A stretch of DNA of 43,639 nucleotides from a virus (IMGVR_UViG_2617270952_000006); one strand, 5' to 3'; positions 32,149-41,054 are shown, counted from the stretch's first letter. Made by a program: numbers and translations. Notes: generated by a model not told the origin, from the letters alone.

Positions 32149-33525
32149 TCATACGTCCGCCCCTTGTGCATATCGTCTGCCACGCGCAGCAGGTGCATTT
32201 GATGCTGTGCAAATCTGTCTGGCTTCATCCTGGTCACATGCAACAAAGTGTCCGTTGCAGAACCGCTGGTAAACCGTACCAAGCGAGCCAAAACGGTTTT
32301 TCGTCACGATGATTTCAGCAAATGGCGCGGCGCTACTGTTCTCGTCATATACCGCTTCCCGATAGAGCATGATGATTGAGTCTGCGTCCTGCTCAATGCT
32401 TCCTGAATCACGCAAATCTGCGTTTGTCGGGCGTTTGTTTGGTCGCTTCTCAACATCGCGCGAAAGCTGACTTAGGGAGATAACAGGCGTTTTCAAGTCT
32501 TTCGCCATCGCCTTCAGGCTTCCTGAGATGTGAGCAATTGCGAGGTCGTTGCGGTCTGCTTTCGGCTTCTCAATCAGGCCAAGATAATCCGCCATGATGA
32601 GTGAGAGGTTTGGATTTTCCTGTTTGTGCCGTTCTGCGATTGAGCGTATTTCTTCGACCGATAACCGCGAGGCATCGACTACCCATACATCCAAATCTGC
32701 AAGCTGACTCATGCCGTTAGCAACACGTGCCCAGCCCTCGTCATCCATTGATGCAGGATTTCGCAGTACGCTAACCGACATCCTCCCGGCGTTGGCAATG
32801 CTTCGCTCTGCAATCTGCAATGCGCTCATTTCCATTGAGAAAATCAATACTCCGCGCCGGACGTCAGAACCAGGAATAACGCGGCTTGCAACGCCTTCGG
32901 CAATCTTCAGCGCCAGTTCGGTTTTCCCCATACCAGGACGAGCAGCGATTATCACCAGGTCTTCCGCGTTCATCCCTCCGGTGATGGCATCAAGTTCTTC
33001 GATTCCGGTCTTCAGGGTATCTGACTCTTCTCCGTTCCTCAGACGCCTGTCAAGCGTGTCGGTGTAGTCAGTGATGATTTCCCCTAAGCGTACCGGTTTA
33101 ACCTCGTCACGGGGCTTTCTGATGGCTGAGAGACGCTTTACAAGTTCATCCATCGCCTGACTCGATGCGTCGATGGTTCCGCTCTGAATTGGTTCACGCA
33201 TTTCATCCATGATTTCCAGCACCAGACGGCGGTGATAGTTATCCGCGACCATTCCGGCATATCCCTTCAGGTTTGCGGCACTCGGGCAGTTTTTGCTGGT
33301 CATCAGGATTGACGTGAAATGCTCCTCTCCGCACGCCTCGGCAACCATCAGCGCATCGATTAGGTTTCTGTTTCTCGCCTGCTTGCGGATAACCTCGAAG
33401 GCTTTCCGGTAGAGTGGAATTGAAAACGCTTCCGGATCCAGCGTTGCCAGAACGTCGCTGGCGGTTGGTGTTAATCCACCAATCAGCAGGCCACCGATAA
33501 CGCTCGCTTCGATATCCTGTCTCAT
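32149..33525 (-). CDS. Replicative DNA helicase, DnaB family (P22 gp12 type)
   Basis: 458 aa; Walker A ARPGMGKT, DnaB C-terminal motifs SLSQLSR, IEQDAD. Confidence 0.92.
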
Positions 33526-34469
33526 GCAATCCCCCTGTCTGCAAACTTCCCTTCCCGAACTCCCGTTAACGAGTCTTCCCTCAGCAGGTAATCAAAATCT
33601 GCCGTCCAGCCCGTGTCGTTGTCTCCGAAGTAAAACGGCTTGGCCTGATGCACAAACGCCCTGACATACGCTCTGAAACCGTCCACGTTTGGCGTTTTCA
33701 GTTGCGGAATGATTTTCTTCAGGCGGCGTTTGCGTTTCTCGTTGACCGCAACAGCGTGTGGCAGTCTGTCACCGACTTCGGTGTTGTAGGCGTTCAGGAA
33801 GGATTCGTAGTCGATTCGTTCTGCCTTGCGACGTTCAGGTTTAACCTGCCCATCGCCTCCCCCATTGGGGGGTAGGGGGGTATTATTTATATTCTTGTTA
33901 ATACCTTCTTGTTCATGATGTGCGGTTGTTTGTGCGGCTTCATGTGCGCTTTCATGTGCGGCATGTGCGCTGAAAGCCGCGCCATTACTGGCTTCTCCAT
34001 GTGCGGCATCATGTGCGGTTGTTTGTGCGGCTTCATGTGCGGGTAAATTGTCCATTTTTTGAGCATATTCATGGTAATTTGTGATGGTTATCACACGACC
34101 TTTTTGCTTCTCTCCATCAATGGAGATCATCCCCTCTTTCACAAAAACCTGAAGCATCCGCTCAACCTGATCACGGCTTGCTGGCTTGCCATGTCTGTCG
34201 CATAACTGAAGACCTAAATCAGCTGCTGTCACAACCAGTTGACCGGGTTGCAGATGCCATTCATGACCTTTGAAATTCGCTTTGTATGGCTTTCTGGCGG
34301 CATTCAGGAGAAGGTTTTCCCACAGGGTGCGAAGATAAACATCTTTCGCCCATGACTGTTTCAGAATGCTCCGGTACAACGGAATGTAACCAGTTTTCTG
34401 GTTCTCCATCCTGTTGCTCCTGCGCTCGTGTGCGGCGCTGAAATCGTAGATTTTTGCTGTATTGCTCAT
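33522..34469 (-). CDS. Replication initiator (O-like / P22 gp18 type) containing the putative origin
   Basis: 315 aa; N terminus [10 protein letters not shown] resembles lambda O MTNTAKILNF; internal His/Ala repeat encoded by iterons; stop overlaps the helicase start. Confidence 0.85.
33881..34045. repeat. Putative ori: iteron array plus adjacent AT-rich tract inside the initiator gene
   Basis: Nine copies of (c/t)(a/t)tgtgcg(g/c). A perfect 31-bp direct repeat atgtgcggttgtttgtgcggcttcatgtgcg occurs at 33918-33948 and 34011-34041. AT-rich tattatttatattcttgttaata at 33881-33903. Confidence 0.65.
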
Positions 34470-36245: not shown

Positions 36246-36318
36246 AATACAAAGCGTTATAAAAAACTAATTATATTTAGAACATTTTGTATTGACTCGA
36301 TAAAGTACAAATCGTACT
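36246..36318. promoter_or_regulatory. OL: three copies of the same 15-bp operator-like motif
   Basis: aatacaaagcgttat (36246-60), agaacattttgtatt (36279-93), agtacaaatcgtact (36304-18; perfect AGTAC/GTACT inverted repeat in the PL spacer). Confidence 0.55.
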
Positions 36319-36320
36319 AT
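36292..36320 (+). promoter_or_regulatory. PL promoter
   Basis: TTGACT (36292-97), 17 bp, TACTAT (36315-20). The transcript would start at atcagcaggacgcactgacc, which matches the lambda PL leader. Confidence 0.75.
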
Positions 36321-36359
36321 TTAGCCATCAGCAGGACGCACTGACCACCATGAAGGTGA

Positions 36360-36390
36360 TGCTCTTAAAAATTAAGCCCTGAAGAAGGGC
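36360..36390 (+). promoter_or_regulatory. nutL (boxA + boxB), lambda type
   Basis: TGCTCTTAA-aaattaa-GCCCTGAAGAAGGGC; first boxA base is T where I remember C in lambda. Confidence 0.88.
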
Positions 36391-36562: not shown

Positions 36563-36889
36563 ATGGATGCACAAACACGCCGCCGCGAACGTCGCGCAGA
36601 GAAACAGGCTCAATGGAAAGCAGCAAATCCCCTGTTGGTTGGGGTAAGCGCAAAACCAGTTAACCGCCCTATTCTCTCGCTGAATCGCAAACCGAAATCA
36701 CGAGTAGAAAGCGCACTGAATCCGATAGACCTTACAGTGCTGGCTGAATACCACGAACAGATTGAAAGCAACCTGCAACGTATTGAGCGCAAGAATCAGC
36801 GCACATGGTACAGCAAGCCACGCAGTGAAATGGGTGTAACTTGTGTTGGTCGCCAGAAAATGAAATTAGGCAGTAAACCACTTATTTGA
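36563..36889 (+). CDS. N: Antiterminator N (lambda type)
   Basis: MDAQTRRRERRAEKQAQWKAANPLLVGVSAKPVNRPILSLNRKPKSRVESALNPIDLTVLAEYH... matches lambda N (arginine-rich motif). Confidence 0.95.
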   Translation: MDAQTRRRERRAEKQAQWKAANPLLVGVSAKPVNRPILSLNRKPKSRVESALNPIDLTVLAEYHEQIESNLQRIERKNQRTWYSKPRSEMGVTCVGRQKMKLGSKPLI

Positions 36890-36897
36890 GGTGAGAT

Positions 36898-37221
36898 ATG
36901 GAAGCATTAGTAGTAGAGCGAAGCGAGGATGGCTACTGGACGCACCCAGAATACGCCAACCTGTTTGGGGATAGAGAGGTAATTTCAGCTGATGAGTTCA
37001 GATCTTTCTGCAAGCAGCATGGCATTGAATCATCAATTGTTGAAATGGAAAACGACAACAATCAAACGGTAATTGACGCGTATTTTGAAGATGGGAATCA
37101 AAACATCAGTGGATGGGAGCCAAGCATGCCAGATGGAGAAGGATGGTTTGTCGGTTCGATTCACGATACAGAAGACGGTCCGATCTGCGTTTGGTTCAGG
37201 AATGTAGATAAGGCCGAATAG
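36898..37221 (+). CDS. Very acidic 107-aa early protein of unknown function
   Basis: ORF 8 nt after N; hand count 24 Asp/Glu versus 6 Lys/Arg, 5 Trp; stop lies inside a terminator loop. Confidence 0.65.
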   Translation: MEALVVERSEDGYWTHPEYANLFGDREVISADEFRSFCKQHGIESSIVEMENDNNQTVIDAYFEDGNQNISGWEPSMPDGEGWFVGSIHDTEDGPICVWFRNVDKAE

Positions 37222-37236
37222 TCGGCCTTTATTTTT
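37211..37236 (+). terminator. Intrinsic terminator (tL-like) after the acidic ORF
   Basis: aggccga-atag-tcggcct followed by ttatttttgg. Confidence 0.75.
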
Positions 37237-37354
37237 GGCATAAACAACAGAATAAACACTGCACTGTGTATTCATTCCAACGAGTGAATACACGGAGCAA
37301 TGTCGCTCGTAACTAAACAGGAGCCGACTTGTTCTGATTATTGGAAATCTTCTT

Positions 37355-37381
37355 TGCCCTCCAATGTGAGGGCATTTTTTT
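37355..37381 (+). terminator. Second intrinsic terminator in the PL operon
   Basis: tgccctc-caatgt-gagggca followed by ttttttt. Confidence 0.75.
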
Positions 37382-37393
37382 GATGGAGGATAT

Positions 37394-38362
37394 ATGAGTG
37401 AAGTAACAGATTTAGTTGTTATTGAAAAAGCAAATGCAATGACTGTATTTCAGTCTGCCGACCAGATTGAAGAAATCCTTCAAAAGGTTGAACGTGAAGT
37501 TATGTCCTTTGTGCCTGATATCACAACGGCAAAGGGCAGAAAGGAGATCGCTTCTCTGGCGTATAAAGTTGCGCAGACGAAAACATATCTCGATGGTCTT
37601 GGCAAAGACCTTGTTGCTGAACTGAAGGAAATTCCAAAGCTAATTGATGCTAACCGCAAGACAGTGCGTGATCGCCTTGATGAGCTGAAAGCCAAGGCGC
37701 GCCAGCCTCTTACTGATTATGAGGAAGAACAGGCGCGGATTAAAGCCGAAGAAGAAGCTAAGGCAGCAGCTGAAGCTCTCGCAAAGCAAATTGAGTCTGA
37801 CCATGAAATAGCTATTTTGATGGATCGCGAATTTGACCGCCAAAGAGAAGAGGCAAGACTCAAAGCGGAGCAGGAAAAGCGAGAGCATGAAGAACGATTA
37901 AAAAGAGAAGCTGAAGAGAAAGCCAGAGCAGAAGCCGAAGCAAAGGCAAAAGCCGAAATTGAAGCAGCAGCAAGGCGAGAAGCAGAAGCTAAGGCCGCAG
38001 CGGAACGTGCAGAGCGTGAACGCATTGAAGCCGAGCAACGAGCACAGCGCGAAGCAAAAGAGGCAGCAGAACGAGCTGAAAGAGAAAAGCAGGCAGCAAT
38101 TGAAGCAGAACGCAGAAAAGCACAGGAGGAGGCTGAACGAATCCGTCGCGAGGCTGAAGCAAAAGAGCAAGCCAGAATAGCAGAAGAAAAAAGAATCAAG
38201 GACGAAGAAGAGCGTAGAGCAAAGGATAAAGCTCACCGGAAAGAAGTAAATAACAAAATACTTGCTGACCTTATCAAGGTTGGCGCATCAGAAGATGTTG
38301 CTAAAAATATCATAACAGCCATCGTAAAAGGCGAAGTATTCGCAACAAAAATAACCTACTAA
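37394..38362 (+). CDS. 322-aa coiled-coil protein with E/A/K/R-rich (TolA-like) centre; N terminus reminiscent of DUF1351
   Basis: SD ggagg before the ATG; globular ends flank about 170 aa of AEAEAKAKAE/REAE low-complexity helix. Confidence 0.6.
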   Translation: MSEVTDLVVIEKANAMTVFQSADQIEEILQKVEREVMSFVPDITTAKGRKEIASLAYKVAQTKTYLDGLGKDLVAELKEIPKLIDANRKTVRDRLDELKAKARQPLTDYEEEQARIKAEEEAKAAAEALAKQIESDHEIAILMDREFDRQREEARLKAEQEKREHEERLKREAEEKARAEAEAKAKAEIEAAARREAEAKAAAERAERERIEAEQRAQREAKEAAERAEREKQAAIEAERRKAQEEAERIRREAEAKEQARIAEEKRIKDEEERRAKDKAHRKEVNNKILADLIKVGASEDVAKNIITAIVKGEVFATKITY

Positions 38363-38730: not shown

Positions 38731-38901
38731 ATGTCACTTGCAACCACAGTGAAGGAGAGCAAGTTACAGAGACGCATGTACACGCAGCAGGCGTTAATGT
38801 ATCGCCAGAAGGGAGATCGTGAAGGTGTTCGCGTATTTTTAAATGCGGCAAAGACTGAAGTATTAAATCAGCGTTATTTCCTTGGGCCATGTCCATTCTG
38901 A
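38731..38901 (+). CDS. Small 56-aa ORF at the P22 arf position
   Basis: Strong SD aaggag 6 nt before ATG 38731; MSLATTVKESKLQRRMYTQQALMYRQKGDREGVRVFLNAAKTEVLNQRYFLGPCPF. Competes with the overlapping ORF 38652-38822. Confidence 0.4.
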   Translation: MSLATTVKESKLQRRMYTQQALMYRQKGDREGVRVFLNAAKTEVLNQRYFLGPCPF

Positions 38902-38911
38902 GAACAATCAT

Positions 38912-39517
38912 ATGAGCAAAGAATTTTACGCAAGACTGGCAGCTATTCAGGAGAATCTGAACGCGCCAAAGAATCAGTACAACTCATTCGGCAAATATAA
39001 ATACAGAAGCTGCGAAGACATTCTTGAAAGCGTTAAGCCGTTACTGAATGGCCTGTTTTTATCAATCAGCGATGAAGTTGTGTTGATTGGTGATCGGTAT
39101 TACGTGAAAGCCACGGCAACTATTACCGATGGCGAAAACAGTCATACGGCAACCGCTCTTGCACGAGAGGAAGAAAGCAAGAAAGGAATGGATTCTGCAC
39201 AAGTTACGGGAGCTACAAGCTCTTATGCACGCAAGTATTGCCTCAATGGTTTATTCGGCATTGATGATGCGAAAGATGCAGATACCGACGAGCATAAACA
39301 TCAGCAGAACGCAGCAGCAAAGCAATCAAAACCATCACCTACGCCTGAACAGGTTCTAAAAGCATTCACTGACGCAGCAATGCAGAAAAACACCGTGGAA
39401 GAGCTTAAACAGGCGTTCGCCAAAGCGTGGAAGATGCTCGAAGGCACACCGGAGCAGCACAAAGCGCAGGACGTTTACAACATCAGACGAGACGAATTAG
39501 AAGGGGCAACTGCTTAA
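38912..39517 (+). CDS. erf: Erf single-strand annealing recombinase
   Basis: MSKEFYARLAAIQENLNAPKNQYNSFGKYKYRSCEDILESVKPLLNGLFLSISDEVVLIGDRYYVKATATITDGENSH matches P22 Erf. Confidence 0.93.
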   Translation: MSKEFYARLAAIQENLNAPKNQYNSFGKYKYRSCEDILESVKPLLNGLFLSISDEVVLIGDRYYVKATATITDGENSHTATALAREEESKKGMDSAQVTGATSSYARKYCLNGLFGIDDAKDADTDEHKHQQNAAAKQSKPSPTPEQVLKAFTDAAMQKNTVEELKQAFAKAWKMLEGTPEQHKAQDVYNIRRDELEGATA

Positions 39518-39900
39518 TGGCACATTCGATTACAGTAAGACTAAACAAGCCCGCAAGAGAGTTTCAGGCCGGGGAAAATATCGGATTCAACATCCGTGCT
39601 GGCGTTCAGTATTACGATCGCCAGACAAAAAAGAAAGAATGGACAAACTACAGCGCCGTTGTATTTGCCAAGCCGGGAGCGCAAGCGGATTACTACCGTA
39701 GTGTTCTTGTTGAAGGTGGCATTGTGGAAATTACCGGAGAAAACATCAGGGTAGATGTTTATCAGGGGCAAAATGGTCAATCAATCACTCTTGAATTACT
39801 GAATGCAAAGATTGGATTTGCAACTTCAGGAAACAGCCAACAGCAGCAAAGTAGCAATCATCAAAATCATCCTGAATACGACGATTCAATCCCCTTCTAG
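39517..39900 (+). CDS. Short phage SSB-like protein with acidic tip
   Basis: 127 aa, start overlaps the erf stop (TAATG); Q-rich linker and C-terminal EYDDSIPF resembling the SSB DDDIPF tail. Confidence 0.7.
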   Translation: MAHSITVRLNKPAREFQAGENIGFNIRAGVQYYDRQTKKKEWTNYSAVVFAKPGAQADYYRSVLVEGGIVEITGENIRVDVYQGQNGQSITLELLNAKIGFATSGNSQQQQSSNHQNHPEYDDSIPF

Positions 39901-39923
39901 ATTAGCAAAATAAGGATTCCATT

Positions 39924-40217
39924 ATGCCAGCGCCTCTGTATGGTGCGGATGACCCGCGCCGCTGTTCCGGCAATTCCGTATCGGAGGTGCTGGATAAATT
40001 CAGAAAAAACTACGATCGGATAATGTCGCTACCGCAGGAAACGAAAGAGGAAAAGGAATTTCGCCACTGCATATGGCTTGCAGAGAAAGAAGAGCGCGAG
40101 CGAATTTACCAGACATCAATCCGACCATTCCGCAAAGCCACATATACCCACTTCCCTGAAATTGACCCGCGCCTGCGTAATTACCGCTCACGTTATGGCG
40201 CTATCAGTAATGACTGA
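39924..40217 (+). CDS. 97-aa protein, probable Abc2-type anti-RecBCD protein
   Basis: Size and position downstream of erf as P22 abc2; assignment from memory of length and context only. Confidence 0.45.
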
Positions 40218-40227
40218 GGAATTTACC

Positions 40228-40395
40228 ATGAGAGGACTTGCATACAATCCCGGCATTCTTCCGGCAGAAATGATTATTCGCCAACGCGTAAAGCCAATGC
40301 CATCGAGAGAGGAATTGCTTAAGAGAAATTCTTTTCCATCAGTGAATCAAAACAAATATCTGAATGCGATGTGGCGCAAAGGAGGCAACCAGTGA
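40228..40395 (+). CDS. Small 55-aa hypothetical protein
   Basis: SD gagga before the ATG; stop overlaps the GTG start of the next gene (GTGA). Confidence 0.45.
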
Positions 40396-41054
40396 GCAAG
40401 ATTAACTATCAGGCACTACGTGATGCGGCAGAAAAGGCAACACAGGGTGAATGGGTCGCATTTATTTCGCCGGGCAAATACGGCACGTACGCCGTACACA
40501 CACCAGGTGATAATCATCACGGAGATATTGTCGACTGGCCAGGATTCGACGAACAGAAAAACGCAGAGAACAACGCTCGTTATATCGCAGCTTTCAACCC
40601 TGAAGTAGTGCAGGCGCTGCTGGATGAACGGGAAAGAAACCAGCAATACATCAAATCACGCGACAAGGAGAACGAGGAAATTGCGCTAACGGTAGGGAAG
40701 CTGCGTGTTGAGCTGGAAGCCGCAGAGAAGCGCAACGCAAAATTACAAAGCGAGAATGCATACATCCGCAACCGGTTCAAAGAACTGGACCTGTTAATCG
40801 GGAAAAACATTCTGGTCATGCAGGCTGCCATTATCGAATGGCAGGCAACTGGCGACGCTAAGAGCGGACTGGCATGGATTTATAACACACTGTTTGGCCC
40901 TGGCGAATTACCGGACGAATCTGAGAAAGATGCTCAGGCCTACTTTAATCGCAAATATGCACCGATTGACGAAAAGCTTATGGAGCTTCACAAGTGGTTT
41001 TGGGAACAAAGTGAAGCCGAGCGCGCTGCTGGTATTCGCATCAAAGGAGAGTGA
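40392..41054 (+). CDS. Ead/Ea22-like protein
   Basis: [21 protein letters not shown]...[19 protein letters not shown], typical Ea22-like N domain plus coiled coil; GTG start with SD ggagg. Confidence 0.75.

Follow-up and report, generated by a model that had tools for sequence, protein, structure and literature searches.

An acidic gene next to N in a lambdoid phage belongs to a widespread, unannotated protein family

Introduction

In phage lambda, the part of the leftward early (pL) operon that runs from the end of N to a conserved junction holds sieB, orf28 and ral. Ral is a protein of 66 aa that acts by stimulating type I methylation, not by mimicry. Two other described proteins, Ocr of phage T7 and plasmid-encoded ArdA, are small, strongly acidic (pI ~4) and placed among the first proteins made. 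Ocr, the product of the immediate-early gene 0.3, is an elongated helical dimer, and ArdA-type anti-restriction genes sit in the leading region of plasmids. Ugi, AcrIIA4 and T4 Arn are compact acidic alpha/beta inhibitors of ~85–110 aa.

The locus described here lies in a window of 43,639 nucleotides, which is the whole stretch of viral DNA that was analyzed (IMGVR_UViG_2617270952_000006). An open reading frame at 36898–37221 on the + strand, referred to below as the acidic ORF, starts with ATG and encodes a polyanionic, Trp-rich product of 107 aa. With lambda Ral (and Lar of Rac) it shares the cargo slot between N and the junction and the character of a small early protein. Fusions to Lar-like domains occur in some of its relatives, not in the acidic ORF itself; a tblastn search with lambda Ral found no match in the window, and no Pfam Ral or Lar domain was detected in the acidic ORF. 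Its product is like Ocr and ArdA in size, acidity and time of synthesis, and it has the strong net negative charge of that functional class (−18; family median, −15).

A preliminary description had likened the product to these small acidic DNA mimics. The likeness does not extend to sequence or fold, as no similarity to any solved mimic was found. Neither Pfam or other sequence similarity to Ocr (T7 gp0.3) nor an Ocr-like fold was seen, and for ArdA there was no Pfam or NCBIfam match, with the plasmid homologues lying outside the leading region. The structure prediction that the preliminary description had called for yielded a confident model (pLDDT 88) of a compact alpha/beta domain, unlike Ocr, that resembles no known DNA mimic; a conserved Trp/His/Arg motif dominates the family. 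Ugi, AcrIIA4 and T4 Arn are comparable in kind only, i.e., in size, acidity and mixed alpha/beta structure. For the nucleotide sponges Tad2 and Acb2, the family domain gave no Pfam match and no PDB fold match.

The Ea and exo-xis genes of lambda and P22 (Ea22-like, Ea10/DUF2528 and TraR-like Orf73) resemble the family in that they are non-essential company of the early left operon, modular, and common to phages and F-type plasmids. The Ea22-like and other partner domains are modules separate from the family domain, with no detectable homology to it. Homology to lambda Ea10/DUF2528, considered for a look-alike GW-P-M-DG-EG stretch, was ruled out (hhalign probability 0.2%, E 0.35). The SUKH (SMI1/KNR4) immunity superfamily was likewise rejected, as its weak matches in one fused member were repeated in 0 of 70 members. 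By sequence and predicted fold, the acidic ORF thus stands outside Ocr, ArdA, Ral/Lar, Tad2/Acb2, SUKH and Ea10, and it may still work as a small acidic inhibitor.

The Acidic ORF and Its Transcription Unit

The computed composition of the product (10 Asp and 14 Glu, or 24 acidic residues, against 2 Lys and 4 Arg, or 6 basic ones, in 107 aa) agrees exactly with counts made earlier by hand, and corresponds to a pI of 4.11, a mass of 12.2 kDa and a net charge of −18. It is the most strongly net-acidic of the 76 ORFs in the window that reach 80 aa, with 0.168 net negative charges per residue versus 0.082 for the second-ranked ORF. The binomial probability of at least 24 Asp/Glu among 107 residues is ~1e-3 at a background of 11.5%. 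The four Trp residues are unremarkable in themselves (P ~0.08 at a 1.5% background), but richness in Trp is a trait of the family, where the median is 6 Trp per ~106 aa. The acidic ORF is a real gene, because full-length homologues with conserved motifs span a range from 99% to ~30% identity.

Signals of a lambda-type early operon precede the ORF on the same strand. A pattern scan placed a pL-like sigma-70 promoter at 36292–36320 (TTGACT, 17-nt spacer, TACTAT), and similarity to lambda sets in at 36326, a position equivalent to the start region of the lambda pL transcript. It is followed by a nutL-like site at 36360–36390, with exact pattern positions for a boxA-like element (TGCTCTTA, 36360–36367) and boxB (GCCCTGAAGAAGGGC, 36376–36390); the lambda Nutl annotation falls inside the aligned region. 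The N antiterminator gene, identified from the ORF list and from annotations in related phages, occupies 36563–36889, is of the lambda type (MDAQTRRRERR...) and shares 85% DNA identity with lambda N. The acidic ORF begins 8 nt past the N stop codon, as its earlier placement directly after N implied, and its Shine-Dalgarno sequence, GAGGTGA at 36888–36894, is strong and overlaps that stop codon.

The first intrinsic-terminator-like site after pL was found by terminator scan at 37210–37238 (+). It consists of a G+C-rich hairpin at 37210–37229, with an 8-bp stem that includes 5 G-C pairs and a 4-nt loop, followed by TATTTTTGG. The hairpin overlaps the stop codon of the acidic ORF, in keeping with the earlier remark that the gene ends in a terminator. 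The left arm falls within the 3′ end of the ORF (its last codons), and the conserved lambdoid junction supplies the right arm and T-run; in the alignment, the lambda counterpart of this region lacks a match to the 8-bp left arm.

Between the pL-like promoter and the acidic ORF, the pattern scan detected no terminator-like site. The scans thus place a promoter and nutL upstream and a terminator-like site only after the ORF, which is the layout of an immediate-early pL unit. Since the first such site stands at the end of the ORF, the acidic ORF should be carried on the same immediate-early transcript as N, independently of N antitermination. The preliminary description had instead supposed that the protein is made immediately after N-mediated antitermination; with no terminator-like site on the way from pL, expression is expected without it. 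The ORF has no promoter of its own and should therefore be silent in the repressed prophage.

A Cargo Slot in the Lambdoid pL Operon

Immediately downstream, the window from 37218 to 37393 is 95.5% identical to lambda 34087–33911, which directly follows ral. This conserved lambdoid junction (+), delimited by alignment to lambda, fold z-score and terminator scan, is non-coding and contains a 14-bp stem at 37264–37295 and a second terminator-like hairpin at 37355–37374 with a T-run. A 201-nt region here folds far better than shuffled sequences (z −5.6). The junction, annotated as “bsq4” in Sf6, may be a tL2-type terminator cluster and module boundary, or could encode a small RNA.

Between the end of N and the junction, where lambda has sieB-orf28-ral, the acidic ORF is the sole occupant, and homologues of ral, sieB and ea10 were absent from the window. 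The earlier statement that the gene lies where lambdoid phages place ral is borne out, with both the N and the junction flanks matching lambda. The lambdoid phages Louie, HK633 and mEp043 have the same flanks with unrelated small ORFs between them. The interval from N to the junction is thus a polymorphic cargo slot between conserved junctions that are prone to recombination, and the acidic ORF is an accessory (cargo) gene carried there by the leftward early operon.

The slot ends distally at the next gene of the pL operon, 37394–38362 (+), which encodes a highly charged protein of 322 aa homologous to Sf6 gp33. Its center is long, rich in Ala/Glu/Lys/Arg and coiled-coil-like; some phage records carry the label “TolA”, and Pfam gave no match. 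The rest of the pL operon (38882–41054, +) appears P22/HK620-like, with ORFs assigned by eye and from annotations in related phages. They include an Erf-type annealing protein, an SSB-like protein, an Abc2 anti-RecBCD-like protein (39924–40217) and an Ea22-like protein (40371–41054). Elsewhere in the window, rightward of the immunity region in the lambda orientation, a 315-aa ORF at 33522–34469 (− strand) contains a duplicated His/Ala-rich stretch, which is an unusual low-complexity linker.

Family Membership and Distribution

The product of the acidic ORF matches PHROG 1372, a group of unknown function, over residues 1–106 (E 1.2e-43), i.e., full-length. Its closest named relative, mEp213 gp45, is 97% identical and is encoded at the same position of the pL operon, and hypothetical proteins of E. 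coli prophages reach 99% identity. This allele is present in 40 of 5426 complete E. coli genomes. On this basis, the acidic ORF is not an orphan but a member of the PHROG 1372, or mEp213 gp45, family. In mEp213, the region upstream of the homologue (L001 953–2710) has tandem N-like antiterminator genes, gp51 and gp47, each followed by small ORFs; they look like a duplicated or mosaic N module.

Relatives at 30–50% identity are found in phages of Pectobacterium, Erwinia, Yersinia (PY54), Klebsiella, Providencia, Nitrincola, Pseudomonas, Vibrio, Ralstonia and Burkholderia (phi1026b gp46), as well as in the P1-like plasmid prophage D6, Rac-type prophages and one Stx2k phage. N15-like plasmid prophages are also carriers. 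The proteins mEp213 gp45, phi1026b gp46, PY54 ORF48 and D6 orf96 are uncharacterized true homologues that have motifs, acidity and Trp content in common. Unlike the acidic ORF, many PHROG 1372 relatives have extra N- or C-terminal domains or are located in other early regions (nin-like, near int, or in a tra operon).

In a library clustered at 50% identity, an exhaustive profile search retrieved 1005 cluster representatives at E ≤ 1e-3 and 492 at E ≤ 1e-10, and it is in this library that ~1000 related clusters were counted. A translated search of PLSDB located homologues on 2443 of 72,556 plasmids (3.4%), mostly Klebsiella IncF replicons: 1896 of these plasmids come from Klebsiella and 2130 are predicted to be conjugative. 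All of the plasmid homologues are annotated as “hypothetical protein”.

Pfam returned nothing significant for the product of the acidic ORF, the lone match to DUF2303 (E 0.12) being attributable to chance, and NCBIfam and PADLOC scans matched no family. A literature search on the PHROG 1372 family, including the supplements of a phage accessory-gene screen, found nothing. PHROG 1372 is a very widespread, unannotated and structurally novel family.

Conserved Residues and Predicted Fold

Across 179 domain instances, the family medians are a net charge of −15 and a pI of 4.24, with Trp at the density given above. A conservation profile from 147 sequences filtered to <70% identity (numbered as in the window) contains five near-invariant aromatic columns and two motifs, R-D-x-x-G-x-W-x-H-P and W-x-P-x-x-P-x-G-x-G-W-F-x-x-S-I-H-D-T-E-D-G-P-x-C-x-W-x-R. 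The near-invariant residues are R8, G12, W14, H16, P17, W73, P75, P78, G80, G82, W83, F84, I88, G94, W99 and R101, with an aromatic at position 37. The product of the acidic ORF carries all of these conserved motif residues except D9 (Ser) and W37 (Phe).

Asp or Glu accounts for at least 50% of residues in 14 columns (9, 25, 27, 33, 44, 51, 53, 64, 69, 79, 81, 90, 92 and 93), and D90, E92 and D93 are 89–95% acidic across the family. Acidity is thus positionally conserved in the family, yet the aromatic residues and His, Arg, Gly and Pro are kept best. H16 is 99% conserved, H89 73% and C97 76%. A universal zinc or metal site formed by H16, H89 and C97 was rejected as unlikely, since H89 and C97 are just 73–76% conserved.

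An AlphaFold2 model of the product, built with 25 homologues, has a pLDDT of 88 and a pTM of 0.78. It depicts a compact alpha/beta domain with helices at 17–23, 31–40 and 56–63 and strands at 43–49, 83–91 and 94–102. The S-I-H-D-T-E-D-G segment, to which D90, E92 and D93 belong, is predicted to form the end of strand 83–91 and the turn of a C-terminal beta-hairpin. Comparison of the model with solved structures, known DNA mimics included, revealed no fold resemblance, and a search of PDB sequences gave no match. For the tandem-domain relative P0034, considered as a proxy for a dimer, a single-sequence AlphaFold model had a pLDDT of 40, too low to be informative.

Genomic Settings and Domain Fusions

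A position behind N is not a trait of the family. Of 50 genomic loci from Enterobacterales and Pseudomonas, 32 have an integrase gene ~2 kb downstream on the same strand, and these integrase-linked loci are distal early-left operons. Other settings include that of Rac-SA53, where the family gene follows replication and ead genes; of PY54, where a Lar-like gene, exonucleases, a methyltransferase and DinI surround it; and of D6-type plasmid prophages, where it is part of Ea22-like/DUF4752/DUF4406 arrays and adjoins a metallophosphoesterase. The neighborhoods are hypervariable, with 215 of 266 neighbor clusters being singletons. Neighbors that recur are ordinary genes of the early left operon (integrase, Xis, Erf, methylases and Ea22-like proteins), and a TraR-type zinc finger was also found among them.

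Plasmid copies are located either between traW and traU in an F-type tra operon or at a tra-distal position between finO/traX and repA; none of those examined is in a leading region. In three IncF-type backbones (L058 4645–6955; L073 2276–3953; L074 1660–3291), the family gene is linked to genes for a multi-pass membrane protein of 214–236 aa and a PLD (Nuc-like) nuclease with a signal peptide. Its start overlaps the stop of the upstream gene in all three, which encodes the membrane protein in Enterobacter and Salmonella and DUF2726 in Klebsiella. Klebsiella IncFII(K) plasmids have additional PIN7 and DUF2726 nuclease-family genes. Membrane protein, PLD nuclease and family gene make up a conserved, previously undescribed plasmid module at the tra-distal end; none of these plasmid partners accompanies the phage copies.

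Two interpretations of the plasmid neighborhood were rejected. DUF2726 as an obligate partner, as in a toxin/immunity pair, is confined to the Klebsiella IncFII(K) lineage and absent from the 50 genomic loci and from other plasmids, on which the membrane protein takes its place upstream. A defense system is not indicated either, in that only the PLD gene matches DrmC-type models, as any PLD nuclease would. In Enterobacter IncF plasmids (L059 2943–5306), five hypothetical ORFs including the family member are inserted between traW and traU, and the other four have no Pfam or PADLOC match.

Of 182 family proteins collected, 79 are at least 150 aa long. A minority of the fusion partners have a Pfam match, including Lar-like zinc ribbons (3), an Rv2179c-like 3′–5′ exonuclease (2), a Tad2-like domain (1), KTSC (1), DHHA1 (1) and others; most partner modules are PHROGs of unknown function, and one protein carries two tandem copies of the family domain. 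A recurrent partner domain of ~95 aa (…ERxRQ…GwtxEHDD…GELAxAAxxY…WPW…WKP…R.LVKAGALILAEIERLDR) is present in P0083, P0084, P0063, P0128 and others. It has no Pfam match and, in at least 10 cluster representatives, is fused either before or after the family domain. The fusions show the family domain to be a self-contained unit, freely joined to other accessory domains, and they hint weakly at restriction alleviation or counter-defense.

Possible Functions

Our tentative preference, held with somewhat less than even confidence, is that the product of the acidic ORF stoichiometrically binds or inhibits a conserved nucleic-acid-handling protein of the host. The gene would be transcribed from pL together with N, ahead of the first terminator, and its product would appear in the first minutes of infection or induction. 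The product would be a cytoplasmic, compact alpha/beta protein that lacks a recognizable enzyme fold and hence acts stoichiometrically. Its target could be a nuclease, a component of restriction or defense, or a DNA-transaction factor of the host, which would be blocked or redirected. Contact would be made through the positionally conserved polyanionic surface, including the exposed D-T-E-D-G tip of the beta-hairpin, and through the invariant Trp/His/Arg patch. Both the inhibitory mode of action and the type of target are inferred, from the combination of a fold unlike that of enzymes, a conserved polyanion, the acidic hairpin tip, the aromatic/His/Arg patch and early expression from mobile elements.

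The fact that a 20-residue motif is strongly conserved in elements of both beta- and gamma-proteobacteria points to a conserved target or ligand and argues against pure charge mimicry, while the plasmid locations argue against an anti-restriction role in the establishment phase. The occupation of the ral slot, the fusions to Lar and Tad2 and the nuclease-rich plasmid neighborhoods mildly favor a nuclease or defense target. Against the binder or inhibitor stands the fact that such strong conservation of the motif would also fit a ligand-binding or catalytic site. The evidence from neighborhoods is weak, given that the neighbors are hypervariable and ordinary. The Lar and Tad2 fusions are few, and the plasmid copies lie outside leading regions. 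An anti-restriction or anti-defense role for the acidic ORF, as proposed in the preliminary description, is a reasonable guess of a circumstantial kind, resting on the shared slot, the rare fusions and the conserved acidic positions. A more specific version appears somewhat unlikely, namely that the family is a new-fold class of counter-defense or host-takeover inhibitors, common to temperate phages of gamma- and beta-proteobacteria and to epidemic IncF plasmids of Klebsiella and Enterobacter, that neutralizes a conserved host nuclease or immune component via the polyanionic surface and Trp/His/Arg patch, and that is deployed here on the N transcript before antitermination.

The same observations can be accommodated in other ways. 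A helper or regulator outside of defense, akin to the exo-xis/Ea genes of lambda and P22 or to TraR/Orf73, would bind a core host factor and so modulate the DNA transactions of the element or host physiology, for example recombination, replication, the choice between lysis and lysogeny, or conjugative transfer. This is unlikely in our estimation, and it overlaps mechanistically with the binder or inhibitor, as both involve binding to a host protein. The usual company of the gene (recombination genes, Ea22-like arrays, Xis, and the integrase ~2 kb downstream in 32 of 50 loci), the TraR-type zinc finger nearby and the plasmid copies between traW and traU or beside the conserved membrane protein and PLD nuclease all speak for it, and the motif, strongly kept across beta- and gamma-proteobacteria, suggests a conserved target that is not engaged in an arms race. 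No specific partner gene co-varies with the family gene in phages, however, and the slot filled here carries defense-related cargo in lambda. That same cargo is a point in favor of an Ocr/ArdA-type DNA mimic, whose acidic surface would imitate B-DNA, soak up type I (or III) restriction enzymes and replace ral in a phage that lacks it. A pI of 4.1, a net charge of −18, acidity kept in 14 family columns and immediate-early expression, as for T7 0.3, are all compatible with such a mimic, as are the three family representatives fused to Lar-like zinc ribbons and the Lar-like gene near the family gene in PY54. The “Lar” model of Pfam, however, describes a generic zinc ribbon, and conservation is highest at Trp, His, Arg, Gly and Pro rather than at the acidic residues. 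No similarity in sequence or fold connects the protein with Ocr, ArdA, ArdB/KlcA, Arn, Ugi or any solved protein. Together with the location of plasmid homologues in the tra operon or the finO-repA interval, outside the leading region, and a plasmid clade that is less acidic and more basic (as read from the Klebsiella sequence), this makes mimicry improbable.

The conserved aromatic and charged residues could also line a pocket. A small-molecule sponge like Tad1, Tad2 or Acb2 would form oligomers with a Trp/His/Arg pocket that traps a nucleotide immune signal or some other anionic aromatic ligand, and the best-kept residues W14, H16, W73, W83, F84, W99, R8 and R101 would be apt for stacking on bases and contacting phosphates. 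The protein is small, it is made early, and in one family representative a Tad2-like domain (E 1.5e-22) is fused to the family domain. That fusion was seen just once, though, and there is no sequence or fold similarity to the PDB structures of Tad1, Tad2 and Acb2. The conserved aromatics may do no more than make up the interior of a domain of 100 residues, binding of anionic nucleotides is disfavored by a net charge of −15, and a sponge does not readily account for the copies in plasmid tra operons, so that this reading is distinctly improbable. Least credible, and scarcely to be expected, is a small metal-dependent enzyme with an active site of H16, H89, D90 and C97 around the S-I-H-D-T-E-D-G motif. 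H16 is nearly invariant and the S-I-H-D-T-E-D-G-P-x-C motif is well kept; H89 and C97, on the other hand, are not invariant and should face opposite sides of the hairpin, to judge from the strand register of the model, and the domain has just ~100 aa and no similarity to any catalytic fold.

Significance

The acidic ORF is a well-defined and cheap target for functional screening rather than a discovery in itself, since an acidic early accessory gene will not surprise a specialist. The value of the family as a screening target lies in its breadth, which includes thousands of clinical plasmids, combined with its lack of annotation. It comprises ~1000 clusters at 50% identity, is found on 3.4% of the plasmids in PLSDB, most of them Klebsiella IncF replicons of clinical importance, and extends over many phage hosts; no Pfam model, solved structure, fold relative or published function was found for it. 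If its members tune the DNA transactions of the elements that carry them, they would help in understanding the Ea/exo-xis class of lambdoid genes, which has long gone unexplained. If they inhibit a host nuclease or defense component, they would add a new fold to the anti-defense repertoire and explain a conserved gene on widespread resistance plasmids.
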